From Chloroflexota bacterium (GTDB lineage Bacteria; Chloroflexota; Anaerolineae; B4-G1; SLSP01): a stretch of DNA of 58,625 nucleotides. Under the pieces are notes generated by a model. That model did no database searches, was not told the DNA's origin, and saw only the letters and a program-made list of their open reading frames with translations. A program made the translations under genes and the position numbers. The stretch lies in assembly GCA_034717835.1 (NCBI GenBank), contig JAYELZ010000034.1:1-58625 (forward strand), read 5' to 3'. This document shows, in pieces, positions 4,353 through 19,078 of the stretch (the first letter of the stretch is position 1; the number at the start of each line of letters is the position of its first letter).

Positions 4353-4401
4353 GATTTATCCCTCCCAGACAACACTATACTTCACTGCTCTGAAAAAGTA
4401 A

Positions 4402-4439: not shown

Positions 4440-4468
4440 AGCTGTGGCCGGTCTCTGACCGAGCCACC
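4438..4468. repeat. REP-like palindrome family A (GTGGCCGGTCTC[C]TGACCG.GCCAC)
   Basis: Related copies at 2834-2851 (partial), 21273-21301, 35636-35658, 35684-35713 (inverted) and 58541-58565 (inverted). Confidence 0.8.
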
Positions 4469-4481
4469 TCTGGAAATTACC

Positions 4482-7205
4482 TTACGCGATCTTCTCTACT
4501 TTGACCGCGCTGACCTTATACTCTGGAATCTTCGCCACGGGATCCAGGAAAGCCCCTGTCAGCCAGTTAGCATTCCCCGCCGGGAAATGGAACGTACTGA
4601 AGACTAACCCCGGGGCGACCCGATCGGTCAACCACGCGCGGGCCACCAGCTCGCCACGGCGTGACGCCAGTTTGATCTGGTCCCCGTCCACAATCCCCAG
4701 TCGATCCGCGTCGTCAGGATTGATCTCGACCAGCGGTTCGGGGTAGAGCGCCAGCAGGCTCTCGGAACGACGCGTCTGCTCGCCGCCGTGCCAGTGATAG
4801 AGCACGCGCCCCGTCGTCATGGTGAAGGGGTACTCGGCGTCGGGAGCCTCACGCGGCTCAAGGTGCTCGTTGGCGGTGAAAAGCCCCAGCCCACGGGCGA
4901 ACTTCCCAACGTGCAGGATGGGAGTGCCGGGATGCTCGTCCCCGCGCACGGGCCAGGCGAGCTGCGCGCCCGCGTCCAGCCGCCAGTAGTGGACGCCGCT
5001 GTAGATGGGGGTGCAGGCCGCGATCTCGTCCATCACGTCGGCGGGCGAAGCGTAGTGCATGGGGTAGCCCATGCGGGTACCGACTTCGCAGATGATCTGC
5101 CAGTCGGGGCGCGACTCGCCGGGAGCTTGTACGGCCTTGCGCACGCGCTGAATGCGGCGCTCGGTACTGGTGAAGGTGCCCTCCTTCTCGGCGAAACAGG
5201 TGCTGGGCAGGATCACGGTGGCGTATTGAGCCGTCTCGGTCATGAAAATGTCCTGCACGACCAAGAAGTCTAAAGTTTCCAGGGCTACCTTGACGTGGTT
5301 GAGATCAGGATCGGAGGTCATGGGGTTCTCGGCAAAGACGTAGAGTGCTTTGAGGTCGCCATCATGAGCGGCGTTCATTAGCTCCACGACGGTGAGGCCG
5401 ACTTTGTCGGATAGCCCCTCTACGCCCCAGAAAGCCTCGAACTTCTCCTTCATCGCCGGGTCAACCACTTTCTGGTAGCCGGGGTAGACGTTGGAGAGCG
5501 TGCCTAAGTCACACGCGCCCTGCACGTTGTTCTGGCCGCGCAACGGATTCACGCCGCCGCCACGCACGCCCAAGTTACCCAGGAGCATCTGCAGGTTCGC
5601 TAACGACATCACGTTCATCGTGCCGGTGGTGTGCTGGGTGATGCCCATTGACCAGAAGACCGCGCTGGGCTTGTTCTCGTGGAGCAGGCGCGCCGCTTCT
5701 TTGATCTTCGCGGCGGGCACCGTGGTGATCTCCTCGGTGAGCTCCAGCGTGTATTTCATCACCACTTCTTTGCACGCCTCGAAATTCTCGGTGCGCTCGG
5801 CGATGTATTCCTTGTCTTCCCAGCCGTTGACGATGATCTCGCGCATGATGCCGTTGAAGAGCGCGACGTCGGTGCCGGGGCGCTGTTGCAGGTGCAACAC
5901 GGCCAGCTTGCACAGGTCAATTTTGCGCGGATCGGCGACGATGAGTTTGACGCCTTTCTCGCGGATGGCCTTGCGCATCTTGATGCCGATGACGGGGTGC
6001 TGCTCGGTGGTGTTGGAGCCGGTGACGAAGTAGAGTTTGGCGTCTCCGGTGGAGTCCTCGATGGAGTTGGTCATCGCGCCGCTGCCCAACGTGCTGGCCA
6101 GACCGGCGACGGTGGAGGAGTGGCAGAGGCGGGCGCAGTGATCCACGTTATTGGTCTTGCCGACCGCGCGGGCTAGCTTCTGCATCAGGTAGTTCTCCTC
6201 GTTAGTACACTTGGCGGAGGAGAGGTAGCCGACACTGTCGGGGCCGCTGTGATCGCGGTGGTAGGTCAGCTTCTGGGCGACGAGGTCTAACGCCTCATCC
6301 CAGGTCGCTTCGCGGAAGCCGGGATATTTGCTGCCGCCATTCGCGTCGCGGATGAGGGGGACGGTCAGCCGTTCGTCGCTGTGGACGAAGTCCCAACCGT
6401 AGCGCCCCTTGACGCACAGCGCCATACCGTTCGCCGGCGCTTCAGGCGTGGAGGTGACGCGGGTGATCTTGCCGTCCTTCACGTTGAGGTCAAACTGGCA
6501 ACCCACGCCGCAGTAGGTGCAGGTGGTGCGAACCTTCGTCTGGTAAGTAGCGCGTCCCCAGCCCTGGGAGGGCTTGTCGAAGAGCGCGCCCACCGGGCAG
6601 TAGGCCACACAGTTGCCGCAGGATTCACAGTCTGCGTCTAGCATTGGTTGATTGGCGCCGGCCACGACCAATGTATCGAAGCCGCGCTCGGAGAAGTTCC
6701 AGACGTCACGTCCCTGGATCTCGGCGCAGGCGCGCACACAGCGCCCGCAGAGGATACATTTATTCATATCCACCAGGACGACGGGGTTGGGGTCGGAATC
6801 AACGGGGCGCGAGTGGCGTGCCCCACTGTGCTCCGGCCACTGCACGTCGTATTCGTAGACCCAGCGTTGCAGCTCGCAGTCACCGTCCATTTCGCAGGTC
6901 ATGCACTCGTTGGGATGGTCGGTCAGCAGCATAGAGAGTGTGAAGCGGCGCGAATCTACCACTTTATCTGTCTGCGTATGCACCACCATGCCTTCGGTAG
7001 CCGGTAACGTACACGATGTCTCCAGGTTACGCATCCCCTCAACCTCCACCACACATAAGCGGCAGGCCCCCGTCGGTGTAAGGTCAGGATGATGACAGAG
7101 CGTTGGAATTGTGATGCCTAGTTGTTGGCTAGCTTCTAAAACTGTGGAATTTGCTGGAACGGTTACCTCTTGGCCATCAATAGTCAGGTGAACCATTTTC
7201 GTCAT
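4482..7205 (-). CDS. fdhF: Formate dehydrogenase alpha subunit (Mo/W-bisPGD, Cys ligand) with N-terminal 2Fe-2S and 4Fe-4S domains
   Basis: PTLCHHP..GACRLCVVE, HPNECMTC, CILCGRCVRAC, CTYCGVGC..LCVKG, active site DHCARLCHSSTV, LRGQNNVQG, C-terminal molydopterin-binding domain with KIPEYK. Confidence 0.93.
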   Translation of the reverse strand: MTKMVHLTIDGQEVTVPANSTVLEASQQLGITIPTLCHHPDLTPTGACRLCVVEVEGMRNLETSCTLPATEGMVVHTQTDKVVDSRRFTLSMLLTDHPNECMTCEMDGDCELQRWVYEYDVQWPEHSGARHSRPVDSDPNPVVLVDMNKCILCGRCVRACAEIQGRDVWNFSERGFDTLVVAGANQPMLDADCESCGNCVAYCPVGALFDKPSQGWGRATYQTKVRTTCTYCGVGCQFDLNVKDGKITRVTSTPEAPANGMALCVKGRYGWDFVHSDERLTVPLIRDANGGSKYPGFREATWDEALDLVAQKLTYHRDHSGPDSVGYLSSAKCTNEENYLMQKLARAVGKTNNVDHCARLCHSSTVAGLASTLGSGAMTNSIEDSTGDAKLYFVTGSNTTEQHPVIGIKMRKAIREKGVKLIVADPRKIDLCKLAVLHLQQRPGTDVALFNGIMREIIVNGWEDKEYIAERTENFEACKEVVMKYTLELTEEITTVPAAKIKEAARLLHENKPSAVFWSMGITQHTTGTMNVMSLANLQMLLGNLGVRGGGVNPLRGQNNVQGACDLGTLSNVYPGYQKVVDPAMKEKFEAFWGVEGLSDKVGLTVVELMNAAHDGDLKALYVFAENPMTSDPDLNHVKVALETLDFLVVQDIFMTETAQYATVILPSTCFAEKEGTFTSTERRIQRVRKAVQAPGESRPDWQIICEVGTRMGYPMHYASPADVMDEIAACTPIYSGVHYWRLDAGAQLAWPVRGDEHPGTPILHVGKFARGLGLFTANEHLEPREAPDAEYPFTMTTGRVLYHWHGGEQTRRSESLLALYPEPLVEINPDDADRLGIVDGDQIKLASRRGELVARAWLTDRVAPGLVFSTFHFPAGNANWLTGAFLDPVAKIPEYKVSAVKVEKIA

Positions 7206-7287
7206 AAGAACCTCCTTACAGCTGCAAAATTTGTTTTTATCAAAGTTTAAAATAACGGATTAACAACCAATGCCAGACTTTTCAAAA

Positions 7288-8946
7288 TCACAGATAATTA
7301 TGCTGGATAGTTTCGGGTGCTGGTTGGTTGACTTTATCCAGAGGACAGACCTCGGCCGGGCAATGACCGGCCAAGTGAGCTTCAAATTCTTCACGGAAGT
7401 AGCGTAACCCGGTGATGATGGGGACTGCCGCTGCCTGACCAAGACCACAGAAGGAAAGTTCCTGAACCTGCGTGGCAATTTCTTCCAACGCCAACAGCTC
7501 CTCCGTCGAGCTCTGCCCGTGACGCATCCGCGCCAGTATCTCCAACATGCGGGTAGTGCCGATACGACAGGGGGTACATTTGCCGCAGGATTCGGCTTGG
7601 AAGAAGCGCATCAGCACGTAAGCCAGATCCACGATGCAGGTATCTTCTGCACATATGAGCAGCGCGCCGCTGCCCAGCGACGCCCCCTGCTCCTGCATTG
7701 ACTTGTAATCCAGCGGTACGTCCAACATCTCCGGGGGGATGAAACTGCCCGAAGCGCCGCCCGTCTGGGCGCATTTGAACGTTTTGCCAGCTTTCATGCC
7801 CCCGCTGTAAATATCCAGCACCTCTCGCAGCGTGATCCCCATCGGGACCTCAATCAGCCCGGTGATGTTGACATCACCTAACATGGTGTAGACCTTGGCG
7901 CCGGGGCAATGCTCGGTTCCGATGGAGCGGAACCATTCCACCCCGTTATGGATAATGGGGGGGATATTGGCGAGCGTCTCCACATTGTTGACCACGGTAG
8001 GTTTATCACGGAACCCGGCCACGGTGGGATAAGGCGGGCGGATACGCGGGATGCCTCGTTTGCCCTCCAAGCTTTCCAGCAGAGCGGTCTCTTCGCCGCA
8101 GATGTAAGCGCCGGCGCCAGCGTGGAGGTGGATGTGGAAGGAGAAGTCACTCTCCATGATATTATCACCCAGCAAACCGTACTCTTCTGCCTGCTGGATA
8201 GCCAGTTCCAGCCGCTCTCGGGCTTGACCGTACTCGCCACGGATGTAAATCCAGCCCTGGTCAGCGCCGACGGCATAGCCGGCAATTGCCATCGCTTCCA
8301 ACACCACGTGCGGGTCGCCCTCCAAGATCAGGCGATCTTTGAAGGTACCCGGCTCGGATTCGTCGGCATTGCAGACGATGAATTTCTGAGCTGACTGCTG
8401 ACTTTCTACGAAAGACCACTTTAGCCCCGTGGGGAAGCCCGCGCCGCCGCGTCCTTGCAAACCGGATTCTTTGATCGTCTCCACCACCGCGTGCGGGGAG
8501 AAGTCACTGAGCACGGCGCCCAGCGCGAAATAACCATCCTCGGCAATGTACTCTTCGATATCGGTGGGATCAATGCTGCCGGCACGTTGCAAGACCACGC
8601 GCTTCTGCGCGTAAGTGATCCCAGTACGGCCGGGTAGATGTGCGATCTCGCCGCTCAACATCTCTGGTGGGGCCAGTAGCTGTTCGACTACGCGGCCCTT
8701 GTAGAGCTGCTCCTCCACGATGTAGGCCGCATCTGCCGGCGTGACCGGGCCGTAGCGGGTCCCTTCTGGGTAGATGATCACCAACGGCAACGCATCGGTG
8801 CGATCCGCTGGGCCCATGTACGCGACCTGGACTTCATCCAGCAGCCCGTAGCGGGATAGTTCCGCTTCAAAGGCCAGTTTCGTTTCTTCAGCGCCACGCG
8901 AAAGACTGAGAGAATCGCTAGAAATCAGTATGCGTGCGCGAATCAT
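7288..8946 (-). CDS. NuoF/HydB-like FMN- and NADH-binding subunit, short form without C-terminal ferredoxin domain
   Basis: GRGGAGFPTGLKW, CNADESEPGTFKDR, GAGAYICGEET, ESCGKCTPCRIG, CGLG. Confidence 0.9.
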   Translation of the reverse strand: MIRARILISSDSLSLSRGAEETKLAFEAELSRYGLLDEVQVAYMGPADRTDALPLVIIYPEGTRYGPVTPADAAYIVEEQLYKGRVVEQLLAPPEMLSGEIAHLPGRTGITYAQKRVVLQRAGSIDPTDIEEYIAEDGYFALGAVLSDFSPHAVVETIKESGLQGRGGAGFPTGLKWSFVESQQSAQKFIVCNADESEPGTFKDRLILEGDPHVVLEAMAIAGYAVGADQGWIYIRGEYGQARERLELAIQQAEEYGLLGDNIMESDFSFHIHLHAGAGAYICGEETALLESLEGKRGIPRIRPPYPTVAGFRDKPTVVNNVETLANIPPIIHNGVEWFRSIGTEHCPGAKVYTMLGDVNITGLIEVPMGITLREVLDIYSGGMKAGKTFKCAQTGGASGSFIPPEMLDVPLDYKSMQEQGASLGSGALLICAEDTCIVDLAYVLMRFFQAESCGKCTPCRIGTTRMLEILARMRHGQSSTEELLALEEIATQVQELSFCGLGQAAAVPIITGLRYFREEFEAHLAGHCPAEVCPLDKVNQPAPETIQHNYL

Positions 8947-9416
8947 GCTTCACCTCCTGTGCGATAGCGATTCAGAATAGACTTGACCTTTGCGGGGGTG
9001 AGATTGCCATAGGCTTCCTCATCCACCAACATCACCGGCCCTACGGCACAGAGACCCAGACAACTGGTCGGTAATAAAGTCCAGTTGCCATCTGCGGTAG
9101 TCTCCCCAAATTGGATGCCCAACTCACGCTCCAACGTTTCCCAGATCTCGCGGCCCCCTGCCACGTGACAGGGTGCATCTTGACAGAGCTTGATCACGTG
9201 CTCGCCCAGCTGCTCCACGTTGATCATGCTGTAGAAACTGGCGACGCTATGAACTTCGCTGGGGGGCAGCTGGAGCCGCGCAGCCACGGCTTCCATAGCC
9301 TCCGTCGTGAGATACCCGCTTTGTTGGCTCAGCTCACGCAGGATCTCGACCAACGCTTCACGGCTTGTTCCGTGGTGACCGATTACTTCATCAATCAAAG
9401 TCAAATTTGTTTCCAT
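8943..9416 (-). CDS. NuoE/HydC-like 2Fe-2S subunit
   Basis: VASFYS, LCQDAPCH, SCLGLCAVGP. Confidence 0.9.
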   Translation of the reverse strand: METNLTLIDEVIGHHGTSREALVEILRELSQQSGYLTTEAMEAVAARLQLPPSEVHSVASFYSMINVEQLGEHVIKLCQDAPCHVAGGREIWETLERELGIQFGETTADGNWTLLPTSCLGLCAVGPVMLVDEEAYGNLTPAKVKSILNRYRTGGEA

Positions 9417-9526
9417 ATTTACCTCTTTTGGCAGTCTAGTAGTCAGGTAATTTCCAATCTCAATTATCCGGCCAAGTGACTAAGCGATCAAGCGACTAAG
9501 GACTAAGCGACTACCCGACTAATTGA

Positions 9527-11299
9527 CTATTCCACATGCACAGCTTCAACCGGGCAGACTTGCTTGCAGATGCCGCAGCGGATGCAGCTCTCCGGGTCAA
9601 TGATGTGTACTTCCTTCGGCTTCCCGCTGATGGCGTTGACCGGGCAGTTGCGGGCGCAGCGGGTGCAGCCGATGCAGGCCTCTGGGTCGATGGTAAATTC
9701 AATCAATCCCTTGCAGACTTTGGCGGGGCATTTCTTAGCGTAGATGTGCGCCTCGTACTCGTCGCGGAAATATTTGATGGTGCTTAAGACGGGGTTCGGC
9801 GCGCCCTTGCCCAGTCCACAGAGAGAACCTTCCTTAATATAGTCCGCCAGGGACTCCAGCCGCTCGATATCGCCAGGTTGTCCTTTGCCGGCGCAGATAT
9901 CGTTCAGGATTTCCAACATGCGGCGAGTTCCGACACGGCAGGGGGTGCATTTGCCGCAAGATTCGTCCTGCGTAAATTCCATGAAGAAGCGAGCGATATC
10001 CACCATGCAGGTATCCTCGTCCATCACCACGAAGCCGCCAGACCCCATCATGGAGCCGACTGAAGCCAGACTTTCGTAATCGACGGGCAGATCCAAGTAT
10101 TCCTCTGGGATACAGCCGCCCATCGGGCCGCCGGTCTGCACGGCCTTGAACTTTTTATCATTCAGGATGCCCCCGCCAATGTCATAAACAATCTCGCGGA
10201 TGGTCATGCCCAGCGGCACTTCCACCAACCCGGTGCGTTTTACCTTGCCGGCGATGGCGAAGGTCTTGGTGCCCTTGCTTTTCTCCGTGCCCATTGAGGA
10301 GAACCATGCCGCCCCACGCCGGAGGATTTTGGGGACATTGGCCAAAGTCTCCACGTTGTTGATGTTGGTGGAGTATCCCCAGAGGCCGGAGTTGGCGGGG
10401 AATGGGGGCCGGGTGAGCGGCATCCCGCGCTTTCCTTCAATGGATTGCATGAGTGCGGTCTCTTCTCCGCAGACGAAAGCGCCGGCGCCCATGCGGATCT
10501 CGATATCAAAGTCAAAGCCACTCTCGAAGATATTTTTGCCCAGCAAGCCATACTCGCGCGCCTGCTTGATGGCTGTACGCAGGATTTTGATGGCGATAGG
10601 ATACTCGGCGCGCACGTAGATGTAGCCCTGTTGCGCGCCGATGGCGTAGGCGGCGATCGCCATACCTTCCAACACCGCGTGGGGATCACCTTCCAGGACG
10701 CGGCGGTTCATAAATGCGCCGGGATCGCCCTCGTCGGCGTTGCAGATCACGAACTTCTGCTCACTATCCGCCCGGCGGGCAAAATTCCATTTAAGCCAGG
10801 TGGGGAAGCCAGCACCTCCACGCCCACGCAACCCGGATTCCTTCATCTCAGCGATCACGTTCTCCGGTTCCATTTCAGAGAGCACTTCACCCAGTGCGAT
10901 GTAACCATCTAGTGCGATATAATCGTCGATATTTTCGGGGTCAATCTTCCCGATGTTAGCCAGCACCACGCGCACCTCTTTAGCTGAGGGCGGGGGGAGT
11001 GGTTCACTGGGCGGTTCTTGATAAGTTAGTTTCTCTATAGGGCGACCTTTGAGTAGATGTTCGGCGACAATAAGCCGGGCATCGTCGGTGGTCAGGTTAA
11101 CATACTGAGTCCCTTCTGGATAGATGACCAGCTCTGGGCCTTGTGCATCATGGCCTAAAGAGCTAACTTCCATAACTTGGACTTCAGCAGCCAACTCTAA
11201 CGTGGCGAGCTCCTCCTGGAGAGCAGCTTTTACTTCCTGCGCCCCCAGGTCAATACACTGCGGGCTGTTGCTGATCAATACATGTGCACGGTAAACCAT
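9527..11299 (-). CDS. NuoF/HydB-like flavin subunit, long form with C-terminal 2x[4Fe-4S] ferredoxin domain
   Basis: CNADEGDPGAFMNR, GAGAFVCGEET, GGPMGG, ESCGKCTPCRVG, CPAKVC, CIGCTRCARNCP, CIRCGICKQVCP. Confidence 0.92.
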   Translation of the reverse strand: MVYRAHVLISNSPQCIDLGAQEVKAALQEELATLELAAEVQVMEVSSLGHDAQGPELVIYPEGTQYVNLTTDDARLIVAEHLLKGRPIEKLTYQEPPSEPLPPPSAKEVRVVLANIGKIDPENIDDYIALDGYIALGEVLSEMEPENVIAEMKESGLRGRGGAGFPTWLKWNFARRADSEQKFVICNADEGDPGAFMNRRVLEGDPHAVLEGMAIAAYAIGAQQGYIYVRAEYPIAIKILRTAIKQAREYGLLGKNIFESGFDFDIEIRMGAGAFVCGEETALMQSIEGKRGMPLTRPPFPANSGLWGYSTNINNVETLANVPKILRRGAAWFSSMGTEKSKGTKTFAIAGKVKRTGLVEVPLGMTIREIVYDIGGGILNDKKFKAVQTGGPMGGCIPEEYLDLPVDYESLASVGSMMGSGGFVVMDEDTCMVDIARFFMEFTQDESCGKCTPCRVGTRRMLEILNDICAGKGQPGDIERLESLADYIKEGSLCGLGKGAPNPVLSTIKYFRDEYEAHIYAKKCPAKVCKGLIEFTIDPEACIGCTRCARNCPVNAISGKPKEVHIIDPESCIRCGICKQVCPVEAVHVE

Positions 11300-11340
11300 A
11301 GGACCTCCTTAATAACTGTGAGCGTCACTCACACTGCCGG

Positions 11341-11706
11341 CTATTTAGCTGTTTTAACTTCCCATTCGGGCACTGGTTCGCCAGCGACGAGGCGTTTGAC
11401 GATCAAGGTAGCCGCGCGCGCCGCATCAATTTTGCCGTACCAGGTAGGTTCCTCAGCGCCGACCTGGATCTTGACCAGCGGCTCGTATTCGCAGAGGCCA
11501 ATGCAGCCAGTTTGCGTGACTACCACATCCTTGAGCTGGCGCTGCTCGATCTCAGCGAGAATAGCTTTCATAGTTTCGCGCGCGCCGGCGGCAATGCCAC
11601 AAGTGCCCATTGCCACGGTCACGCGCGCTCGCGCTTCTGTCCCACTTAATTGGCGACGTTGCAGGGCACGTTCTTTGATTTTACGTAGTTCGGCTAAATT
11701 TTTCAT
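11341..11706 (-). CDS. Thioredoxin-like [2Fe-2S] ferredoxin (HydD/HndB-like)
   Basis: VAMGTCGIAAGAR, QTGCIGLCEYEP. Confidence 0.88.
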   Translation of the reverse strand: MKNLAELRKIKERALQRRQLSGTEARARVTVAMGTCGIAAGARETMKAILAEIEQRQLKDVVVTQTGCIGLCEYEPLVKIQVGAEEPTWYGKIDAARAATLIVKRLVAGEPVPEWEVKTAK

Positions 11707-11758
11707 GCTTTATTTCCTCCTAAGGTATAAATCAACGGGTTAGAAAATTGCCGGGTGA

Positions 11759-12334
11759 TTAGTGCGGAGTTATTCCCGATAGCCCGGCTTCCAAAGTGTT
11801 TCTGAGGAATCCCAACACTTCGGGGTCAGAGAGAGGTACCTCATTGCCTAGTACTGCTCGTACCTCGCGGGTATCCAAAATAAACTCCTCTTCCGCTGGG
11901 GATGTCAGACCTATCAAGTGATGGTGGTAATAAAGATCGACTTGCGGATAACCGACGATCATACAAGTGACAGTTGTTGCCACATCGCCCAGAGGAGGCC
12001 GGTCAATGTGGCTATATTGGAAGGACGCCTGGGTCGTTGTCCCTTGACCTGGTTGCGAGTGAATCGCGAAGTTCCCCCCGCACATCTCTGCCGTTTGCTT
12101 AAAGAAAGGAATCCCCAAACCTACCTTGCGCGTGGTGCGCGTCGTGACCCAGGGATCGGCAATGTGTTGGAGCATCTCGGCATCCATCCCTGCGCCATTA
12201 TCGCATAAGGTGATGGTGAGTAGGTCTTGCTGCAAGTCCTCCTCGATATCCACGGTAATCAACGTGGCACCGGCTTTGACGCCATTCTCGTAAATATCCA
12301 AGATGTGTTGGGACAGGTCCCGAAAAACGGTCAT
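11759..12334 (-). CDS. Stand-alone HATPase_c (histidine-kinase-like ATPase) of hydrogenase-type operons
   Basis: DLSQHILDIYENGVKAGA, DNGAGM, TTRTTRKVGLGIP, HIDRPPLGD. Confidence 0.85.
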   Translation of the reverse strand: MTVFRDLSQHILDIYENGVKAGATLITVDIEEDLQQDLLTITLCDNGAGMDAEMLQHIADPWVTTRTTRKVGLGIPFFKQTAEMCGGNFAIHSQPGQGTTTQASFQYSHIDRPPLGDVATTVTCMIVGYPQVDLYYHHHLIGLTSPAEEEFILDTREVRAVLGNEVPLSDPEVLGFLRNTLEAGLSGITPH

Positions 12335-12422
12335 TAGGTTAGTCCATTAGTTGGTTAGTCGTTAGTCAAGTAGTCAAGGGCTAATCTTCAACTTTAGACC
12401 TTTGACTTTGGACTTTTGACTC

Positions 12423-12920
12423 CTATTTATATTTGCGTAGAATACGACCTATCTTACCCGGATCAACGCGTCCCACAATGTCGTCGTCAACCATCACCAC
12501 CGGCGCCTGTGAGCAAGCTCCCACGCAGCGGCAAATCTCCAAAGTGAAGCGGTTATCTTCTGTGGTTTCGTTGATATCCACCTCCAAGAGCTGTTTAAGC
12601 TTCTCCACTAGCATGGGGCCGTCGCGCACGTAGCAAGCGGTTCCCAGACAGACACTGACCTTATGCCGTCCAATGGGGCTGGTGCGGAAGGAGGAGTAGA
12701 AAGTCAATACGCCGTAGAGATGGCTGAGTGGTACATGCAGCTGCTCCGCGAGGTAGCTCTGCATAGGGGGAGAGATGTAGCCCACCTCTTCCTGCACCAA
12801 AGTTAATACCAACATGGTGGCTCCAGGTTTGCCGAGATTTTTGGCCAGAATAACATCAATTTTTTCTCTGTTTTCCGGCTGTAGCTCTGCTACCAGTTCT
12901 TCGGCAGGAGTGACATTCAT
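12423..12920 (-). CDS. NuoE/HydC (HndA)-like 2Fe-2S subunit
   Basis: YGVLTFYS, VCLGTACYVR, CRCVGACSQAP. Start moved to ATG 12920, which follows a GAGGTG RBS. Confidence 0.9.
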   Translation of the reverse strand: MNVTPAEELVAELQPENREKIDVILAKNLGKPGATMLVLTLVQEEVGYISPPMQSYLAEQLHVPLSHLYGVLTFYSSFRTSPIGRHKVSVCLGTACYVRDGPMLVEKLKQLLEVDINETTEDNRFTLEICRCVGACSQAPVVMVDDDIVGRVDPGKIGRILRKYK

Positions 12921-13000
12921 AAATTCACCTCGACTATATGTATTTTTTTGCATGTATATGGTAAAAAAACAAATCCCACGATGGAAAATAATCATCTGGT

Positions 13001-13028
13001 ATTATACTGGCAATTCTTCTAATTCCAA
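13001..13028 (-). promoter_or_regulatory. Putative sigma70 promoter for the nuoE...fdhF unit
   Basis: Minus strand TTGGAA-16 nt-TATAAT within an AT-rich gap. Confidence 0.4.
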
Positions 13029-13073
13029 AGTGTTATTTGTGCGTTCTTTACTGGTAATTCTACGCGATTCAGT

Positions 13074-13823
13074 TTAGGGGACGTAGAAACTCCGCCCATC
13101 TATGCTGTGGAGAGCCAGACGTAGCTCGGCGATAGTTGGCGCGGCTAGAGAGTAGATAGTTCTTACTTGCCCCAGAGTATCCAACCAATGCGCGTCGGAG
13201 TTGGTGATGAGCGGCAGGTCTGGCAGAAAAGGGTATCGGTGCCGTGCCTCGGAGGGGCGTAAGCGTGAGGAAACCTCCGCGGCATCGGCCTCCAGGTGTG
13301 GTGGCCAGAGGCCCAACACGCCTAGTAGTCCCTTTGCCGGACGTGTGATGTGGGCTGGAATGACCAGCCCGCCCAGCGCGTGGACGGCGCGAGCCGCTTC
13401 TTCTAGCGAAATCTGCGCCGGCCCCTGATAGAAATACAACTCCTCGCGCACGAAATTACCCTCGGTGTCGACCACAAACTGTGGCCCGAAGTGTTCCGGG
13501 TCATTTTCCAGGGGTAGTAAGAGCGGCGTGACCTGCGATTGCCAGCTCATGGCCTGCTCCAAAGTATCAAAGAGGCAGAGCAAGTCCACTTCCTCCTGCG
13601 CTTGGAGTTCCATGCCCGGCAATACAGTCAGCCCGGTGCCGTGCGCCGCCTCCATCACCGCCGCCGCGTTAGCTGTGGCATTGTGATCGGTGATCGCGAT
13701 GATGTCCAACCCTTTGTGGAGTGACTCGTCCACAATCAATGGAGGGATCATCTCCACCTCGGCGCAAGCGGAAAGTACCGTGTGAATATGTAGATCAGCT
13801 TGGTAGGCGCGGATGGCGGGCAC
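13074..13823 (-). CDS. PHP-domain metal-dependent phosphoesterase
   Basis: DLHIHTVLSAC, AITDHN, GME, PAH, NSDAH. Confidence 0.9.
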   Translation of the reverse strand: MPAIRAYQADLHIHTVLSACAEVEMIPPLIVDESLHKGLDIIAITDHNATANAAAVMEAAHGTGLTVLPGMELQAQEEVDLLCLFDTLEQAMSWQSQVTPLLLPLENDPEHFGPQFVVDTEGNFVREELYFYQGPAQISLEEAARAVHALGGLVIPAHITRPAKGLLGVLGLWPPHLEADAAEVSSRLRPSEARHRYPFLPDLPLITNSDAHWLDTLGQVRTIYSLAAPTIAELRLALHSIDGRSFYVP

Positions 13824-13831
13824 GTTCGTCT

Positions 13832-14164
13832 TTAGTACCCTGCTTGGATCAGTTTAGCGACGGTTTCGTAGGTTGGTTCCGCGCTGGAAAGAAGCACTAC
13901 GCCTTCCGCCATGGCTTTTTCGACCGTTGCCGGGGCGATGGGAGCATCTTCCGTTACTACAATCGCCGCTACCTCCAACATGGAAGCGATGGCGATGATG
14001 TTGAGATGGGTCTGCAGGGTGAACCAGAGTTGCCCCGGTTGTACGCCGGCCATCACACAACTCAATAGATCGGCGATATAGCAGCCTTGGGCTTCACGTT
14101 CCAGTTGCTTTGCCCCGGCCAACACCTTCAAATCTAGTTCAGCTACAATTTTCTTCAGCTGCAT
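13832..14164 (-). CDS. DRTGG-domain protein
   Basis: CYIADLLSCVMAG..LWFTLQTHLNIIAIA pattern. Confidence 0.8.
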   Translation of the reverse strand: MQLKKIVAELDLKVLAGAKQLEREAQGCYIADLLSCVMAGVQPGQLWFTLQTHLNIIAIASMLEVAAIVVTEDAPIAPATVEKAMAEGVVLLSSAEPTYETVAKLIQAGY

Positions 14165-14203
14165 TTGCTCCCTCCCAATAATTTGCGCTACTGAACTTGG
14201 TTC

Positions 14204-15166
14204 TTACTGCGGGGTGACGTTGAAAATCATCTCCACGCGGGTCCCCGTATTCACGGCTGACCAGACGTGTAGTGCGTCAGCACAGTGTTCGGCGTTGACC
14301 AGTCCCATGCCGGCTCCGAAACCCATTTCGCGGGCTTTTTGCGAGGCGGTAGAGAAGCCGGGCTGGCGGGCTAAGGCGACATCCGCGATGCCTGGCCCAT
14401 CATCGTGGGCCACTATGGTGATCTGCTCTGGCTGGATTCTGGCGACAATGTGCCCGCCGTTGAGCGTGTGGATAATCAAGTTGATCTCTATTTCGTAGGT
14501 TGCAATCGCCACCCGTCGTGCCAGTTGAGGAGTAGCTCCAATTTGCTGTAAAGCTTTCTTGATGCTGGAAGAGGCGTGTCCGCCTTTGATGAAATCTCCG
14601 ACTTGTACCCGGTAGCGCAAGGTCAAACTGGTCTCGTCTGAATTTAAGGCTTGGAAGAAGTGGTGTGATTGTTCTTGCTGCTGCAATTGCTCAATTTTCC
14701 GATAGGCTTTTTCCAGGGTTTGGAGGAGACCTGCCATAATATCGCCTTTTGTCAGAATTCCGGTCAAATTACCTAATTTGTCGACCACTATCAGACGTCC
14801 GAAGCCAGCCGTCTCTATCCGCTTTAGAGCTTCCACGACCGGTTCTTCATCCAGTGCGGTAGCTAGATCGGTGGCCATGAATTCGGTCACCGGAGCGTCT
14901 AATCGCTCCTGTTCTAGGGCACGAATTAGGTCTTCTACACTGACAAGTCCCAATAATTCTTGGTGTTCAGGAGATACAATGGGGATACCTGACACCCGCT
15001 GGTCACGCATCATATCCTTTACAGCGCGCATTAAGGTTGTCGGGGGGAGCGTTGAGATGTTGGCCGTCATCACCTCGGAGACCTGAATTTCATAGGTCAG
15101 CTCATGTAAGATGGAGAGCGGAAGGTCCTTACCCATCCGCGCGAAAAGCGAAAAATTTTGACTCAT
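14204..15166 (-). CDS. CBS-pair fused to anti-sigma-factor-type Ser/Thr kinase (HATPase)
   Basis: Two CBS repeats (VSGIPIV..LLGLVSVEDL; GRLIVVD..LTGILTKGDI), then YEIEINLIIH, DDGPGI, GFSTA, EMGFGAGMGL. Confidence 0.85.
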   Translation of the reverse strand: MSQNFSLFARMGKDLPLSILHELTYEIQVSEVMTANISTLPPTTLMRAVKDMMRDQRVSGIPIVSPEHQELLGLVSVEDLIRALEQERLDAPVTEFMATDLATALDEEPVVEALKRIETAGFGRLIVVDKLGNLTGILTKGDIMAGLLQTLEKAYRKIEQLQQQEQSHHFFQALNSDETSLTLRYRVQVGDFIKGGHASSSIKKALQQIGATPQLARRVAIATYEIEINLIIHTLNGGHIVARIQPEQITIVAHDDGPGIADVALARQPGFSTASQKAREMGFGAGMGLVNAEHCADALHVWSAVNTGTRVEMIFNVTPQ

Positions 15167-15528
15167 TGTTGTTGTACCATTGAGAGCTTGCCAAGCCCCG
15201 CTAAGCCAGCTTGATAGAGCAATCCAGAAGTTTCATACATGCTATAATCCGAGAGCAAAATCCCAACGCCGGTTTCTTGGGCCATAGTCAGTAATAGTTC
15301 TGGTGGTCGTTTGCCGCGCACAAAAAGAATTAGCGGAATATCAGACATTTCCGCGGTACGGATGGTCTGCGGATTGATCAAGCCCGTGAGCATTAGTAGC
15401 TGTGGTCTCGCAAAAGCTAAAATATCACTCATCAGATCAGCGGCAAAAGCATATTCTACTTCAATGTCTACTGACGGTGAAACCAGAACCTCACCGTCTA
15501 CTATTGTTGCAATCTCATTTATTCTCAT
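15163..15528 (-). CDS. DRTGG-domain protein
   Basis: AFAADLMSDILA, LTGLINPQTIRTAEM, VRGKRP. Start at 15528 follows a GGAGG RBS. Confidence 0.8.
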   Translation of the reverse strand: MRINEIATIVDGEVLVSPSVDIEVEYAFAADLMSDILAFARPQLLMLTGLINPQTIRTAEMSDIPLILFVRGKRPPELLLTMAQETGVGILLSDYSMYETSGLLYQAGLAGLGKLSMVQQQ

Positions 15529-15632
15529 GGTCGCCGTTGCCTCCTGCAATAATGCAGTTGAATTTCGATTGAGGTTACTTTTTAGGAAAATAAGTACATT
15601 TCTTAATGTGGAAGATTGCCTGTACAAAGGGT

Positions 15633-15641
15633 ATTATACCA
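15633..15641 (-). promoter_or_regulatory. Extended -10 promoter for the DRTGG/kinase/PHP unit
   Basis: Minus strand TGGTATAAT about 105 bp upstream of ATG 15528. Confidence 0.45.
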
Positions 15642-15693
15642 TACAAAGGTTAAAGTTGGACTCTGCGGGAAGTGGGCTTGATACAAGATCCTG

Positions 15694-15722
15694 TTGACAG
15701 GTGCTAGTAGAGGATGTAAACT
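15694..15722 (+). promoter_or_regulatory. Putative sigma70 promoter
   Basis: TTGACA-17 nt-TAAACT upstream of 15764. Confidence 0.45.
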
Positions 15723-15763
15723 GGATATAGTAAATCTTTGAGGCTATACTCTGAGGTGAGGTT

Positions 15764-16402
15764 ATGGATGGGTGGCTTTTCCCAGTACTTATTATAGTAA
15801 TTTTAGGCATAGTCGGATTGACGGCTTGGTTGGTGAGTGTTTTGGTGAAAGGAGGTGATGCCCCCCGAGAAGCAGTTACTCGTCAACCGGGCAGCGCTAA
15901 GAACAGCCTGCTCAGTGTTGACCGAGATGAACGCGGCATCTGGCAGGTGTGGGTTAAGGGGAAACTTTATCATAAACTAGCGGAGGTCCCGGAGCAGGCA
16001 ACGCGGCGCGAGGTAGTGGATGCGGTGCGGATATTAGCCGGGTTTAGCCGCGAATATATTTCCCGAGAGCATCATACCGCAGCCGCTGCCCCGAAAAAGC
16101 CGTCTCTCACGGGGGGAGAACCTCCTACGTTTTTGAAGGATACCGCCCCCAAACTTTCTCAGAAGCCGCCAGTTTTTATGCCACGCATTGACTTGGCCAA
16201 AGAAATTGGGGAAATTATGAAGGAGCTGTTACAACAACGTCCATCATTGGCACACCGCTCCATCTACTTGCAGAATTCTCTCGACGGGAGCGTCTCCTTT
16301 ATCGTTGATGGAGAGAGTTACTCGGCGGTAGGAGATATCTTAGATCTAGAGGTGCAGGCACTGATTCGAGCTGCTACGCGCAAATGGGAGGAGCGTCGGT
16401 GA
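15764..16402 (+). CDS. Hypothetical protein with N-terminal transmembrane anchor
   Basis: GAGG RBS, hydrophobic N-terminus, two loosely similar V.G..Y..(L/V).(E/D)(V/I) segments. Confidence 0.7.
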   Translation: MDGWLFPVLIIVILGIVGLTAWLVSVLVKGGDAPREAVTRQPGSAKNSLLSVDRDERGIWQVWVKGKLYHKLAEVPEQATRREVVDAVRILAGFSREYISREHHTAAAAPKKPSLTGGEPPTFLKDTAPKLSQKPPVFMPRIDLAKEIGEIMKELLQQRPSLAHRSIYLQNSLDGSVSFIVDGESYSAVGDILDLEVQALIRAATRKWEERR

Positions 16403-16462
16403 GGATGAGGCATTGAGTTTTAAGCATTTGGGTTCTCCGCGTTTCTGGGAGAACTCTACTCT

Positions 16463-16882
16463 TCAAGCTTCCGGTGCTGCCGCGGCCGGGAAATGTACGT
16501 CCACTACATCCCCGTGGATATCAATGATCACTTTGAAGCCCATCAGGCCTAGCCAAGACCGTGATTCCGCAGGCAACCCGGTGCGGAAGAGCTGTTCCAG
16601 GTTCTCATCAAAATGATCAATGGACCTCTCCACAGCGGCTTTGGTGAAAAGGTCGGCCTTGCCTAGAAATTGTAACATACCCTCTACCACCAACTCCCGT
16701 TGGCTGGAGATGTTTTCTTGCAAAGCGGCTAGTACTTGACGGTCTACTTCTTCTGAGTGGATATGTCGTTGAAATCCCCCCGTGTTCACTACGTAATAGG
16801 CCTTCCCTCCGATGATTTCTACCTCCACCGAAGCGTCCGTTTTGTCCAGTACCAAACCTGCGAAGAGAGCCACCCGCGCCAT
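16463..16882 (-). CDS. Hypothetical protein
   Basis: AAGGAG RBS before ATG 16882; globular-looking sequence. Confidence 0.7.
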   Translation of the reverse strand: MARVALFAGLVLDKTDASVEVEIIGGKAYYVVNTGGFQRHIHSEEVDRQVLAALQENISSQRELVVEGMLQFLGKADLFTKAAVERSIDHFDENLEQLFRTGLPAESRSWLGLMGFKVIIDIHGDVVDVHFPAAAAPEA

Positions 16883-16995
16883 AATTACTCCTTTGTTACC
16901 TTTGCTAGCGCCTGCGCTGTTTTGAATTTGCCTATCTCTGCTTGCCAAGTACACTTTAGCAGAAATCAATGTTTTGCCAAACTAGGAGCAGATAG

Positions 16996-17904: not shown

Positions 17905-17936
17905 CGAGTTGTTCTCATAAATACCTCGGAGGTTAA

Positions 17937-18371: not shown

Positions 18372-18394
18372 GAGTTAACCTGGCCGCGGGCGGC

Positions 18395-19075: not shown

Positions 19076-19078
19076 AGT

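Follow-up and report, generated by a model that had tools for sequence, protein, structure and literature searches.

The five small signalling-type genes that lie ahead of and within a formate dehydrogenase operon, on the minus strand of the analysed stretch of Chloroflexota DNA (58,625 nucleotides, here called the window), represent one instance of a gene set that is widespread but unstudied and that accompanies the NADH-binding part of such enzymes, whichever enzyme is served. No functional study of this cassette was found in the published literature. The best explanation overall, which we hold tentatively and at somewhat under even probability, is that the five genes form a signalling cassette of the NuoE/ferredoxin/NuoF module, present here as a variant with a CBS input and a post-translational output on NuoEF.

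On this view the stretch would carry genes accessory to a flavin enzyme of the Bfu type (HydABC-like), which here has a Cys-type formate dehydrogenase as its catalytic subunit. DRTGG1, the CBS-kinase, DRTGG2, the PHP protein and the small GHKL ATPase would make up one conserved cassette, tied to the electron-input module rather than to any particular catalytic subunit. In the proposed working, an adenylate-type metabolite may be sensed by the CBS pair; DRTGG1 is predicted by the complex model to bind at the ATP-lid face of the RsbW/SpoIIAB-class domain, and the invariant Ser of its D-L-M-S-D motif would probably be phosphorylated by the kinase. DRTGG2, with its D-L-L-S motif, may be a second such partner. 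The PHP protein and the GHKL ATPase would reset or read out the switch, the output of which would act on the NuoEF module after translation.

Organization of the locus

The genes named by the initial annotation are all present and in the order given there, as established from open reading frames and from Pfam and NCBIfam matches. Along the minus strand, together with the genes downstream of its range (the ferredoxin-like gene to FdhA), they are:

15163..15528, minus strand: DRTGG1, 121 residues from a conserved Met (longest open reading frame 15627-15163), Pfam PF07085
14204..15166, minus strand: CBS-CBS-HATPase_c_2 protein, RsbW/SpoIIAB-class and kinase-like, 320 residues, Pfam CBS 3.4e-23 and HATPase_c_2 6.6e-8
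13832..14164, minus strand: DRTGG2, 110 residues, PF07085 27.3 bits and Hpr_kinase_N 3.4e-5
13074..13823, minus strand: PHP-family metal phosphoesterase, 249 residues, GTG start, PF02811 and PHP_C
12423..12920, minus strand: NuoE1 (BfuC-like), about 165 residues (longest open reading frame 12995-12423), PF01257 4.1e-45
11759..12334, minus strand: stand-alone two-domain GHKL ATPase, 191 residues, HATPase_c 1.7e-14
11341..11706, minus strand: small thioredoxin-like, ferredoxin-like protein (HydD/BfuD-like), 121 residues, NCBIfam fdxn_Clost 1.3e-8
9527..11299, minus strand: NuoF1, BfuB/HydB type by Pfam and NCBIfam, with an N-terminal 2Fe-2S-like and a C-terminal 2x[4Fe-4S] domain
8943..9416, minus strand: NuoE2, PF01257 1.6e-49
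7288..8946, minus strand: NuoF2, lacking a C-terminal ferredoxin domain (no Fer4 by Pfam)
4482..7205, minus strand: FdhA, 907 residues, NuoG-like N-terminus and molybdopterin formate dehydrogenase, TIGR01591 863 bits (cut-off 666)

Translation of DRTGG1 probably begins with the Met at 15528, behind a GGAGG; the initial annotation had placed the end of the cassette at this same position. For NuoE1, an alignment of relatives points to the Met at 12920, preceded by GAGGTG, as the probable start. The 3' end of the DRTGG1 gene overlaps the kinase gene by 4 nucleotides. The ATP-binding and metal-binding motifs are intact.

The two flavin modules are different. NuoF1 matches 7t2r_B (NiFe hydrogenase subunit B) over its full length with 823 bits, whereas the match of NuoF2 to the same chain is limited to residues 3-536; the C-terminal 2x[4Fe-4S] domain present in NuoF1 and absent from NuoF2 is typical of the bifurcating HydB. 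The ferredoxin-like protein is a weak match to Pfam 2Fe-2S_thioredx (0.0031) and has three Cys, each kept in 35 of 41 sequences. Among solved structures, FdhA is nearest to alpha subunits of formate dehydrogenases, 6tg9_A (778 bits) being one example. It is of the Cys type, with Cys361-His362 as the catalytic residues in the motif HCARLCH; the codon for this Cys is TGA in three relatives (L024, L028 and L053).

The source genome is 94.98% complete, in 276 contigs. In agreement with the absence of HydA originally noted, PF02906 gave 0 matches in this genome and in all 41 genomes of the order. Searches of the genome detected no DRTGG, NuoF or FdhA genes other than those of the window (two, two and one, respectively), and no hydrogenase, PFL or CdhC (acetyl-CoA synthase). 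This leaves the presumed target of control as the one formate/H2-type redox valve detected there.

A CBS pair in place of a separate sensor

A published account of one Firmicute, Halanaerobium hydrogeniformans, has the same gene set adjoining a HydA operon; Halsa_1862-1871 are annotated there as HydA, NADH dehydrogenase, ferredoxin-like protein, histidine kinase, NuoE, PHP, Fe-S hydrogenase, Fe-S protein, anti-sigma Ser/Thr kinase and an ORF (PMC4237134).

The window's cassette has no HydS-like gene. Elsewhere such a gene follows the kinase, as the initial annotation had noted: among the 80 best-scoring loci, a HydS-like neighbor accompanies 6 of 6 short kinases and 0 of 74 CBS kinases. The short-kinase loci (L078-L082 and L085) are from Bacillota, with one Mycoplasmatota and one Bacteroidota record. 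The fused CBS pair thus takes the place of the separate HydS-like gene of the Firmicute version, and the window copy may be regarded as a CBS-input variant in which an adenine-nucleotide-type pair is fused to the kinase, whereas the putative hydrogen sensor of Firmicutes is a separate protein. The motif G136-T139-D142 of the second CBS domain is invariant in the homolog alignment.

The CBS-kinase and DRTGG1

The CBS-kinase has 2232 homologs at E <= 0.001. Its best NCBIfam match is TIGR01925 spIIAB, the anti-sigma F factor (5.3e-13; 49 bits, under the cut-off of 135), and it retains the SpoIIAB-type catalytic Glu/Asn motif. In the alignment of homologs, residues E225, N229, H233, D255, G257, G259 and G282-L289 of the kinase domain are invariant.

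The assignment of DRTGG1 is marginal by sequence (PF07085, 24.7 bits in one search and 25.3 bits in another, just under and over the cut-off of 25.2, respectively), but firm by predicted fold. The model has a pLDDT of 94.8, and its best Foldseek match, with a TM of 0.79, is AF1212, annotated 'Pfam DRTGG'. D31, S34 and T58 are invariant among relatives and R57 is nearly so; in DRTGG2, the invariant residues are D32, L34, S35, W47, T49, H53 and N55. The DRTGG1-kinase pair also occurs without DRTGG2 and PHP (for example, L053, L070 and G026).

Prediction of the kinase-DRTGG1 complex gave a score of 0.63, which is the model's own confidence, compared to 0.00 for the best of three controls. In a benchmark, 116 of 157 solved complexes scored this high, as did 2 of 215 mismatched pairs; these counts hold only roughly here because our own alignments were used. 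Contacts agreed between runs to at least 87%, and the pLDDT of the partner was at least 86. The predicted interface places residues 31-35 and 57-58 of DRTGG1 against residues 220-228 and 280-294 of the kinase, including the invariant Y224-E225 and G282-G288. The model thus supports binding of DRTGG1 to the ATP face of the kinase through the invariant D-L-M-S-D motif. However, DRTGG1 has a DRTGG fold, whereas the known substrates of RsbW and SpoIIAB have a STAS fold, and the Asp, Ser, Thr, Arg and Lys residues that are invariant in it, or nearly so, could equally line a small-molecule pocket.

In another explanation, the CBS pair and the DRTGG proteins bind an alarmone or an adenine dinucleotide, much like CBS-pyrophosphatases, and the substrate of the PHP protein is this ligand and not a phosphoprotein. 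CBS-DRTGG pyrophosphatases respond to diadenosine polyphosphates, and DRTGG1 matches, in both profile and fold, the CBS-DRTGG regulatory part of the Clostridium perfringens pyrophosphatase. Also in its favor are the Ser/Thr and Asp that are invariant in the motif of the second CBS domain, and the nucleotide phosphoesterases nearest to the PHP protein. Nevertheless, the model puts DRTGG1 on the HATPase domain rather than on the CBS pair, and the short-kinase version, lacking any CBS pair, keeps the DRTGG and PHP genes. We consider such a messenger system improbable.

The phosphoesterase and the stand-alone ATPase

In the PHP protein D46, H47, E72, H158, D210 and H212 are invariant, and H12 and H14 nearly so. 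Its closest solved relatives (3e0f, 7ug9 and 2yb1 among them) are EndoQ, TrpH-like phosphoesterases, an exoribonuclease and a nucleotide bisphosphatase; at E <= 0.01 none of the matched chains bore a protein phosphatase description. Of the phosphorylation switch proposed at the outset, a direct kinase-DRTGG contact is supported by the complex prediction; PHP as its protein phosphatase is not supported.

The stand-alone ATPase has no DHp/HisKA domain according to Pfam. Residues N17, D45, G47, G49, G72, G74 and G98 are invariant. Its model (pLDDT 92.3) matches the CA domains of histidine kinases over about 105 columns and MutL/PMS2 over 176-183 columns (MutL TMq 0.53), so that over its whole length it resembles a MutL-type GHKL ATPase more than a kinase. 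In two loci (L025 and L067) it is naturally fused to PHP.

These resemblances could point to a set for assembly, repair or cofactor supply of the NuoEF flavoprotein, in which a MutL/Hsp90-like ATPase, a metal phosphoesterase and nucleotide-binding DRTGG proteins see to the loading or exchange of FMN, nucleotides or Fe-S clusters. The ATPase gene sits between those of NuoE1 and the ferredoxin-like protein, the DRTGG fold is also similar to domains of pseudomurein peptide ligase, HPr kinase and LpxD, and the relatives of PHP act on nucleotides and nucleic acids. This explanation is rather unlikely, however. The exchange of sensors at the same position, a CBS pair here and HydS-like elsewhere, is typical of signal input and unlike maturation; the catalytic motif of the kinase is retained; and no chain of the cassette's families is among the PDB matches, although solved HydABC-type complexes exist.

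Enzymes accompanied by the cassette

The initial annotation regarded the cassette as a kinase/PHP switch from [FeFe] hydrogenases, repurposed for formate metabolism, that could select either NuoE1/ferredoxin/NuoF1 or NuoE2/NuoF2 as the feeder of FdhA. The presence of two different modules, the similarity of FdhA to formate dehydrogenases and the modelled kinase-DRTGG1 binding are in its favor. The distribution of the cassette is not. The 80 loci compared are not a random sample, being those that scored highest among at least 581 relatives of a query based on Anaerolineae; five have FDH as the catalytic partner, five have HydA, and the rest have [NiFe] hydrogenase, complex I or other enzymes, Stn-like ones included. 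What the cassette tracks is NuoE/ferredoxin/NuoF: in the 40 loci flanked on each side by 7 kb or more, NuoF is present in 33, NuoE in 34 and HATPase in 30, and seven are free of NuoF. Orphan cassettes also occur (L011, L037 and L069). A choice between flavin modules is an unlikely role because most cassettes adjoin a single module, and the set is conserved beside such single modules in most lineages. Two NuoF matches occur in no more than 12 of the 33 loci with NuoF, some of these being split ORFs, and double NuoEF modules were found in Chloroflexota loci only.

Within the order, the occurrence of the kinase is independent of that of FdhA (41 genomes: both in 21, the kinase only in 11, FdhA only in 8, neither in 1). 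FdhA is the last gene of this operon in G000, G015 and G019; in G002, G003, G006, G007, G008, G014 and G022 the operon ends in a [NiFe] hydrogenase, preceded by a NuoG-like gene where called. The [NiFe]-ended form occurs in a relative of the same genus, and in close relatives the same cassette and double module serve a [NiFe] hydrogenase. In G016 and G017 a FdhA/NuoF2/NuoE2 stretch (with the start of NuoF1 in G017) runs to the contig end, and no kinase was found in either genome.

In a quick tree of the kinases, with SH-aLRT support only, at least 7 changes are needed for the FDH label, which is carried among 9 rows. G004 and the [NiFe]-linked G006 form a pair to which the window is sister (support 100). 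HydA/HydS-linked kinases in this sample group in a single clade (12 rows, support 95), separate from that of the window. No evidence for NuoE or NuoF as a substrate was found. Taken as a whole, the model of a repurposed module selector is very unlikely.

Promoter-like sites and the level of control

Two promoter-like sites were found:

15633..15643, minus strand: extended -10 TATGGTATAAT, matched once in the window, about 105 bp ahead of the DRTGG1 start
13001..13028, minus strand: TTGGAA-16-TATAAT, between PHP and NuoE1, 10 of 12 matches in a consensus scan

A further alternative invokes transcriptional partner switching: the RsbW/SpoIIAB-like protein restrains a sigma or other transcription factor, the DRTGG proteins are its anti-anti-sigma antagonists, and what is controlled is how strongly the redox operon is expressed. 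The HATPase_c_2 domain, the anti-sigma F factor match, albeit under its cut-off, and the position of the small partner at the ATP face of the model agree with this, and a conserved block with the consensus CAATGTCACTT, just upstream of the TATAAT before NuoE1, could be an operator. On the other hand, no sigma-factor gene adjoins the cassette; the two ORFs ahead of it, 15764-16402 and 16463-16969, are without a Pfam match. Neither a Rex operator in the window nor the Rex DNA-binding domain (PF06971) in the genome was found. In Thermodesulfobacteriota-type loci the complex I genes nuoABCD split the cassette, a better fit to a role at the protein level. Partner switching is thus an unlikely explanation.

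The site before NuoE1 is a putative promoter resembling those of the housekeeping sigma-70 type, and is conserved: the TATAAT is invariant and a CACTT block is preserved in 7 of 7 aligned relatives. Such a site fits control after transcription, as in the preferred reading of a signalling cassette acting on NuoEF. The extended -10 TATGGTATAAT, a candidate promoter ahead of DRTGG1, is kept in three of the 8 aligned sequences, namely the closest relatives: the window, G006 and G004.

Gene content of the operon

Between 15643 and 4482 the minus strand carries an operon of eleven genes (ORF calls, with families assigned by Pfam and NCBIfam).

Genes of the operon
15528-15163, minus strand, DRTGG1; longest ORF up to 15627
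15166-14204, minus strand, CBS-CBS-HATPase_c_2 protein, a putative kinase ('the kinase'), 320 aa
14164-13832, minus strand, DRTGG2
13823-13074, minus strand, PHP phosphoesterase
12920-12423, minus strand, NuoE1
12334-11759, minus strand, stand-alone HATPase_c protein, 191 aa
11706-11341, minus strand, ferredoxin-like protein, 121 aa
11299-9527, minus strand, NuoF1
9416-8943, minus strand, NuoE2
8946-7288, minus strand, NuoF2
7205-4482, minus strand, FdhA, 907 aa

By sequence the two DRTGG proteins are marginal matches: the cut-off is 25.2 bits, and they score 24.7 and 27.3. The model of DRTGG1 (pLDDT 94.8) superimposes onto AF1212, annotated 'Pfam DRTGG', with a TM of 0.79 and onto the DRTGG domain of a CBS-pyrophosphatase (3l2b) with a TMq of 0.75. 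Its start at 15528 is a conserved Met preceded by GGAGG. The gene order from the Pfam and NCBIfam matches, the fold of DRTGG1 and this Met thus confirm the gene set seen in the initial annotation, including 15528 as its end coordinate. The 191-aa HATPase is regarded as the fifth gene of the cassette, after the two DRTGG proteins, the kinase and PHP, because it is fused to PHP in two related loci (L025, L067) and adjoins PHP in many non-Chloroflexota loci. A genome search places the genome's sole FdhA, its sole two NuoF genes and its sole two DRTGG genes in this operon. The stretch is present in four DNA runs of one brine-metagenome study, and no RNA run that contains it is listed.

The formate dehydrogenase and its two NuoE/NuoF modules

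FdhA passes the NCBIfam formate dehydrogenase alpha equivalog TIGR01591 with 863 bits (cut-off 666), and its closest solved chain is 6tg9_A, 'formate dehydrogenase subunit alpha' (778 bits, residues 5-903). Its N-terminus matches 7t2r_A. The catalytic pair Cys361-His362 is located in the motif HCARLCH; in three of the related kinase-bearing loci (L024, L028, L053) a TGA, read as selenocysteine, occupies the codon of Cys361. FdhA therefore resembles a BfuA subunit, of the HydABC-like Bfu family, that has the formate dehydrogenase pterin site (Cys/Sec then His). In the available part of Schut et al. 2022 (PMC9304861), such a subunit characterizes the 'Type 1 Fdh-Bfu'.

The whole of NuoF1, its C-terminal 2x[4Fe-4S] domain included, matches the B subunits of a NiFe hydrogenase (7t2r_B, 823 bits) and of HydABC (HydB, 7q4v_B, 805 bits). 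It contains Complex1_51K, NADH_4Fe-4S and Fer4 domains, and residues 15-91 match fdxn_Clost (Pfam, NCBIfam), which gives it both the N-terminal 2Fe-2S-like and the C-terminal 2x[4Fe-4S] domains of a BfuB subunit. The match of NuoF2 to the same two chains stops at residue 536, and Pfam finds no Fer4 domain in it. Residues 11-522 of NuoF2 also align with the beta subunit 6tg9_B, but the protein is closer to the Bfu-type B subunit (598 bits for 7t2r_B compared to 315 bits for 6tg9_B). The NCBIfam model 'formate dehydrogenase subunit gamma' matches NuoE2 with 124 bits. Because the match is complete for NuoF1 and partial for NuoF2, the operon encodes one catalytic subunit and two modules, of which NuoE1/ferredoxin/NuoF1 is of the bifurcating type and NuoE2/NuoF2 is plain.

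The layout of Fdh-Bfu type 1, as given in the available part of PMC9304861, is common to the window, which adds NuoE2/NuoF2 without C-terminal clusters. Five accessory signalling genes also set the operon apart from the Fdh-Bfu type 1 and 7t2r enzymes; the words 'histidine', 'ATPase' and 'kinase' are absent from the available main text of PMC9304861. FdhA, NuoF2 and NuoE2 resemble soluble formate dehydrogenases of known structure whose beta subunits are NuoF-like (6tg9; also 9wxb and 7vw6/7e5z). Compared to this 6tg9 type, the window adds the bifurcating-type module and the cassette.

Two NuoE/NuoF pairs in one operon, with and without the C-terminal 2x[4Fe-4S] domain (window 9527-12920 and 7288-9416), are also found in L007-L010, L022, L033, L041, L042, L049, L062, L087, L088 and L096. 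They are kept with FDH and with [NiFe] partners and were seen only in Chloroflexota loci. The ferredoxin-like protein (11341-11706, minus strand) has only three conserved Cys, each in 35/41 sequences, and position 105 is Arg in the window and His in 37/41 relatives. As judged from these residues, it may have unusual cluster ligands, or the cluster may be gone in the window copy.

A SECIS_3-like match is positioned inside fdhA (6070-6128, minus strand; 41.9 bits, gathering score 63, E 8.4e-7) and begins 3 nt ahead of the Cys361 codon TGC (6125-6123). A past Sec-to-Cys change may have left it behind, or the match may be due to conserved coding sequence only. SelA was not found in the genome, and there was no SelB above the cut-off. 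Over 3000-17200, Rfam returned nothing but this sub-threshold match and a chance IRES match.

The initial annotation's statement that the operon stands without an [FeFe] hydrogenase is borne out: a PF02906 search of the window's genome (94.98% complete, 276 contigs) and of the 41 genomes of its order was negative throughout. The [NiFe] large subunit, PFL and CdhC/acetyl-CoA synthase were likewise not found in the window's genome; formate-tetrahydrofolate ligase is present. The cassette probably controls the sole formate/H2-type redox valve found in the assembly.

Partners of the cassette

The kinase has 2232 homologues at E <= 0.001, and those of the best 120 that have names bear the names Anaerolineae, Anaerolineales, Thermoflexia or Chloroflexi. 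An alignment of 27 kinase homologues served as the query and gave at least 581 relatives in species genomes, of which the best 80 were kept with flanks of up to 10 kb. These 80 loci, nearest to the Anaerolineae-based query, are a biased sample. Neighbors were typed by Pfam (47 proteins), by BLAST/tblastn with domain-wise seeds and by the catalytic Cys/Sec-His motif.

Partners in the best 80 of at least 581 kinase-bearing loci
True FDH (Cys/Sec-His): 5 (L009, L024, L028, L033, L053)
FdhA-like, no catalytic Cys: 1 (L070)
NuoG-like, then [NiFe] large subunit: 8, and 3 cut off past the NuoG-like gene
Complex I nuoABCD inserted within the cassette: 9
Stn-like (Fer2_4 + Pyr_redox_2) subunit: 6
587-aa Fer2_4/Fer4 subunit: 4
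Amidohydrolase fusion: 1
[NiFe]/Fer4_22 type, no NuoF: 4, and 1 ambiguous
HydA: 5 (L013, L075, L077, L083, L085)
HydS-like gene, HydA not in reach: 5 (L078-L082)
NuoG-NuoE fusion: 1 (L071)
Only NuoF-GltD (L035) or a GltD-like gene (L018): 2
No recognised partner: 7
Contig end cuts the locus: 18

Among the loci with at least 7 kb on each side, NuoF is present in 33/40, NuoE in 34/40 and the small HATPase in 30/40. The constant companion of the cassette is the NuoE/ferredoxin/NuoF module, rather than HydA or FDH, each of which is the partner in only 5 of the best 80 loci. The cassette had been proposed to be repurposed for formate metabolism. This is not supported, because it accompanies NuoEF modules in general, with partners that include [NiFe] hydrogenase, HydA and complex I. 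The further suggestion that it selects between the two flavin modules lacks support as well, since it also stands beside single modules and the same double module occurs with [NiFe] hydrogenase.

BLAST to the window's FdhA was rejected as a partner label, for it mislabelled HydA, NuoG-like, Stn-like and other proteins via their common NuoG-like N-terminus. L070 was dropped as an FDH locus because the catalytic Cys/Sec-His motif is absent; proteins of nuo operons also lack this motif, like NuoG.

In L051, L052, L054, L055, L057, L059-L061 and L065, which are Thermodesulfobacteriota-type records, the complex I genes nuoA-D split the cassette, and the order is DRTGG1, kinase, nuoABCD, DRTGG2, PHP, HATPase, NuoE, Fdx, NuoF, NuoG. 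The NuoG-like protein of these loci is without the FDH catalytic Cys. Orphan cassettes, in which neither NuoE nor NuoF lies within 10 kb of DRTGG1, the kinase, DRTGG2 and PHP, are found in L011/L099 (genome G011), L037 and L069, and are followed by an L,D-transpeptidase, GlnE or BamA-like gene. Fused forms of the kinase were not found among proteins of 561-2000 aa, which is weak evidence.

Relatives within the order

The kinase is present in 32/41 genomes of the order, always as a single copy, and FdhA (E <= 1e-50) in 29/41; 21 genomes contain both, 11 the kinase only, 8 FdhA only and 1 neither. The kinase regions of 31 relatives were retrieved and typed. In the window and in genomes G015 and G019 the operon runs from DRTGG1 to NuoF2 and ends in FdhA; G004 and G023 are consistent with this arrangement, but split across two contigs. 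In G002, G003, G006, G007, G008, G014 and G022 the operon ends in a [NiFe] large subunit (474-477 aa), preceded by a small subunit of 184-210 aa and, where called, a NuoG-like protein (565-576 aa). For G006, which belongs to the window's own genus, Pfam confirms NiFeSe_Hases and Oxidored_q6, followed by CobW/HypB/UreG- and HypF-family genes. The commoner partner seen in the window's lineage is [NiFe] hydrogenase, not HydA.

In a quick kinase tree (100 rows, SH-aLRT support only) the FDH label, carried by 9 rows, requires at least 7 changes. The window clusters with G004 and the [NiFe]-linked G006 (support 100), and the [NiFe]-linked L062 is the sister of the FDH-linked L033 (support 99). The HydA/HydS-linked kinases fall together in one distant clade (12 rows, support 95). 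The mixture of partners among relatives and the tree indicate that the catalytic end has thus been exchanged repeatedly on a conserved operon backbone.

The version with a putative sensory hydrogenase

Among the best 80 of at least 581 relatives, 74/80 kinases have the CBS pair and 6/80 are short (136-152 aa). Each of the six short kinases has a 425-464-aa protein directly after it, and the three of these that were scanned all match Fe_hyd_lg_C (1.4e-15 to 2.1e-36). A gene for a HydS-like protein, a putative sensory [FeFe] hydrogenase, is beside the CBS kinase in 0/74 loci, and no HydS-like H-cluster protein is beside the kinase of the window. The DRTGG/kinase/DRTGG/PHP/GHKL ATPase set beside NuoE/NuoF is nevertheless there, as in L079-L082 and L085.

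In Halanaerobium hydrogeniformans a HydABC-type operon stands beside a putative sensory [FeFe] hydrogenase cluster (Halsa_1862-1871), according to the available part of PMC4237134. This cluster, like L079-L082 and L085, has in common with the window a small ORF, an anti-sigma-type Ser/Thr kinase, PHP, NuoE, the 'histidine kinase', the ferredoxin-like protein and NuoF. The window differs in having no HydS-like gene, a kinase with an N-terminal CBS pair and FdhA in place of HydA. The Halanaerobium operon agrees with the initial annotation in that the gene set accompanies [FeFe]-hydrogenase operons, and L078-L082 and L085 agree with it in that a HydS-like gene stands next to the kinase.

The putative sensory hydrogenases are called group C1 in HydDB and group D or M2e in other papers. 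Group C1 enzymes are described as histidine kinase-linked and possible H2 sensors in the available parts of PMC6163223 and PMC8542988. It is the version with the short kinase and the HydS-like protein that is in print, as far as the available parts of these two papers and of PMC4237134 extend. The Vallitalea genome analysis (PMC6163223, available part) places the sensory hydrogenase and histidine kinase next to Rnf genes, a link also present in L079, L080 and L082. In L079 and L080 (Halobacteroidaceae) the HydS-type cassette is directly followed by rnfC and more genes, with no HydA; in L082 (Clostridiaceae) NuoE, HATPase, Fdx and NuoF precede the Rnf genes. According to the available part of a 2026 paper on TamHydS, a putative sensor, the interaction or signalling partners of HydS are still to be found (PMC13104023); the kinase, the two DRTGG proteins, PHP and the small GHKL ATPase are concrete candidates.

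The kinase and DRTGG1

The kinase matches HATPase_c_2 (PF13581) with 33.1 bits, above the cut-off, and the SpoIIAB equivalog model with 49 bits compared to a cut-off of 135. Invariant in 27 sequences are Glu225-x3-Asn229-x3-His233, D255-x-G-P-G and the lid G282-F-G-A-G-M-G-L, as well as G136-x2-T139-x2-D142 in the second CBS domain. DRTGG1 has D31, S34, L37, T58 and A83 invariant in 58 sequences and L32, M33, D35, T48, G49, L50, Q54, R57, R71 and K73 nearly so. The invariant residues of DRTGG2 are D32, L34, S35, W47, T49, H53 and N55 (53 sequences).

The kinase and DRTGG1 were chosen for complex prediction because their genes share 4 nt and because some loci, such as L053, L070 and G026, have this pair but neither DRTGG2 nor PHP. 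The complex scored 0.63 and the best of 3 controls 0.00. Alignments built for this analysis were used, so the benchmark, in which 116/157 solved complexes and 2/215 mismatched pairs reached the score mark, is only a rough guide. Three runs had at least 87% of contacts in common, with a partner pLDDT of at least 86. On DRTGG1 the predicted interface takes in the D-L-M-S-D motif (residues 31-35), residues 50-63, R57 and T58 among them, and residues 78 and 86. On the kinase it takes in residues 192-228 and 280-294, which cover the helix with Y224-E225 and the Gly-rich lid; the CBS pair lies outside it. No kinase-DRTGG complex was returned by PDB profile searches, which makes it less likely that the model reproduces a known structure. 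The prediction supports binding of DRTGG1 to the kinase, and we infer that Ser34 is phosphorylated.

In the SpoIIAB/SpoIIAA/SpoIIE and RsbW/RsbV/RsbU systems a kinase phosphorylates a STAS antagonist on Ser, and a PP2C phosphatase and a target sigma factor complete the module. The window resembles them in its HATPase_c_2 class kinase-like protein, with Glu/Asn and Gly-rich ATP-lid motifs, and in a small partner whose predicted interface, at the ATP-lid face, includes an invariant Ser. It differs in that the partner has a DRTGG fold, not STAS, PHP takes the place of the PP2C phosphatase and no sigma factor is nearby. The STAS family is absent from the 18 window proteins scanned (Pfam), and neither a sigma-factor nor a PP2C family was found among the ORFs scanned in 3261-21220, where the sole hydrolase is PHP. 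CBS and DRTGG domains also occur together in the regulatory insert of CBS-pyrophosphatases (CBS-DRTGG-CBS; 3l2b/3l31). In the window, however, they are on separate proteins, the output is a GHKL kinase rather than a DHH pyrophosphatase, and the model sets DRTGG1 on the kinase domain.

Possible control of the flavin module

The best reading, held at slightly less than an even chance, is that a mechanism resembling partner switching and gated by the CBS pair would control the flavin module after translation. An assembly role for the cassette is a rival. A bolder version, which is rather doubtful, is that the cassette represents an undescribed kind of partner switching: the DRTGG proteins, rather than STAS proteins, would be partners and substrates of an RsbW-class kinase, electron flow through the NuoE/NuoF module of bifurcating-type enzymes would be gated after translation and the sensor would be exchangeable. 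The CBS pair would then sense energy charge in the window and HydS would sense H2 elsewhere.

PHP bears on another rival, turnover of a nucleotide messenger. It has kept the expected metal ligands (D46, H47, E72, H158, D210 and H212 invariant; H12 and H14 nearly so), and among proteins of known structure it is closest to endonuclease Q, TrpH-like phosphoesterases, a 5'-3' exoribonuclease and 2yb1. The PDB profile search matched EndoQ, 3e0f, 7ug9, 9etk, 2anu, 2yb1, PolC and YcdX and, at E <= 0.01, no chain described as a protein phosphatase; nor did it link PHP to the solved protein-tyrosine phosphatases of its family (CpsB/YwqE type).

The 191-aa HATPase retains the N, G1 and G2 boxes. Its only Pfam match is HATPase_c (residues 5-105), with no DHp/HisKA domain of a two-component histidine kinase. 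Its model (pLDDT 92.3) matches histidine-kinase CA domains over about 105 columns and the N-terminal domains of MutL/PMS2 over 176-183 columns (TMq 0.53 to MutL), the C-terminal half aligning with the second domain of MutL-type ATPases. On these grounds the protein may be an ATPase switch rather than a kinase.

Transcriptional control is the third rival to control of the flavin module after translation. A TG-extended -10, TATGGTATAAT (15643-15633), about 105 bp ahead of DRTGG1, is common to the three closest relatives of 8 aligned (window, G006 and G004). The 153-bp gap between PHP and NuoE1 holds TTGGAA-16-TATAAT (13028-13001); in 7/7 aligned relatives the TATAAT is invariant and an upstream block (consensus CAATGTCACTT) is conserved. 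With these two housekeeping-type promoter-like sites, the regulatory and the enzyme genes may constitute two units. The Rex operator consensus has no match in the window at up to 3 mismatches (1.9 expected by chance), and the Rex DNA-binding domain PF06971 was not found in the genome. Intrinsic terminators numbered 12 compared to 13.3 expected, with none found between the operon genes on the minus strand.

Many anaerobes have their NADH/ferredoxin balance set by Bfu-type enzymes (HydABC and relatives). If the bolder version is true, the cassette would be a general control system for this bifurcating-type family across many bacterial phyla. In the literature search neither a described regulator of Bfu-type enzyme activity nor functional work on the cassette was found; the papers give only gene lists or remarks of the 'histidine kinase-linked' kind. 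The cassette, of which the window's is one copy of hundreds, needs no hydrogenase, and the CBS version is simple to test; its proteins are small and soluble-looking, the interface is predicted and the invariant Ser is an obvious site for mutation.

Genes outside the operon

Two large ATPase genes come right past fdhA. One is AAA_21 (3261-4352, minus strand), the best NCBIfam match of which is the MADS3 antiphage ATPase, below the cut-off. The other is AAA_13 (41-2395, plus strand), and the GC content is 43% in 1-2000 and 52-63% elsewhere in the window. Positions 1-4352 are possibly a defence island. On the other side, at 23188-27188 (plus strand), an adenylate/guanylate cyclase-AAA_16 protein of 796 aa stands before a 542-aa TPR protein with an overlapping ORF; these look like a signalling pair with no relation to the cassette.
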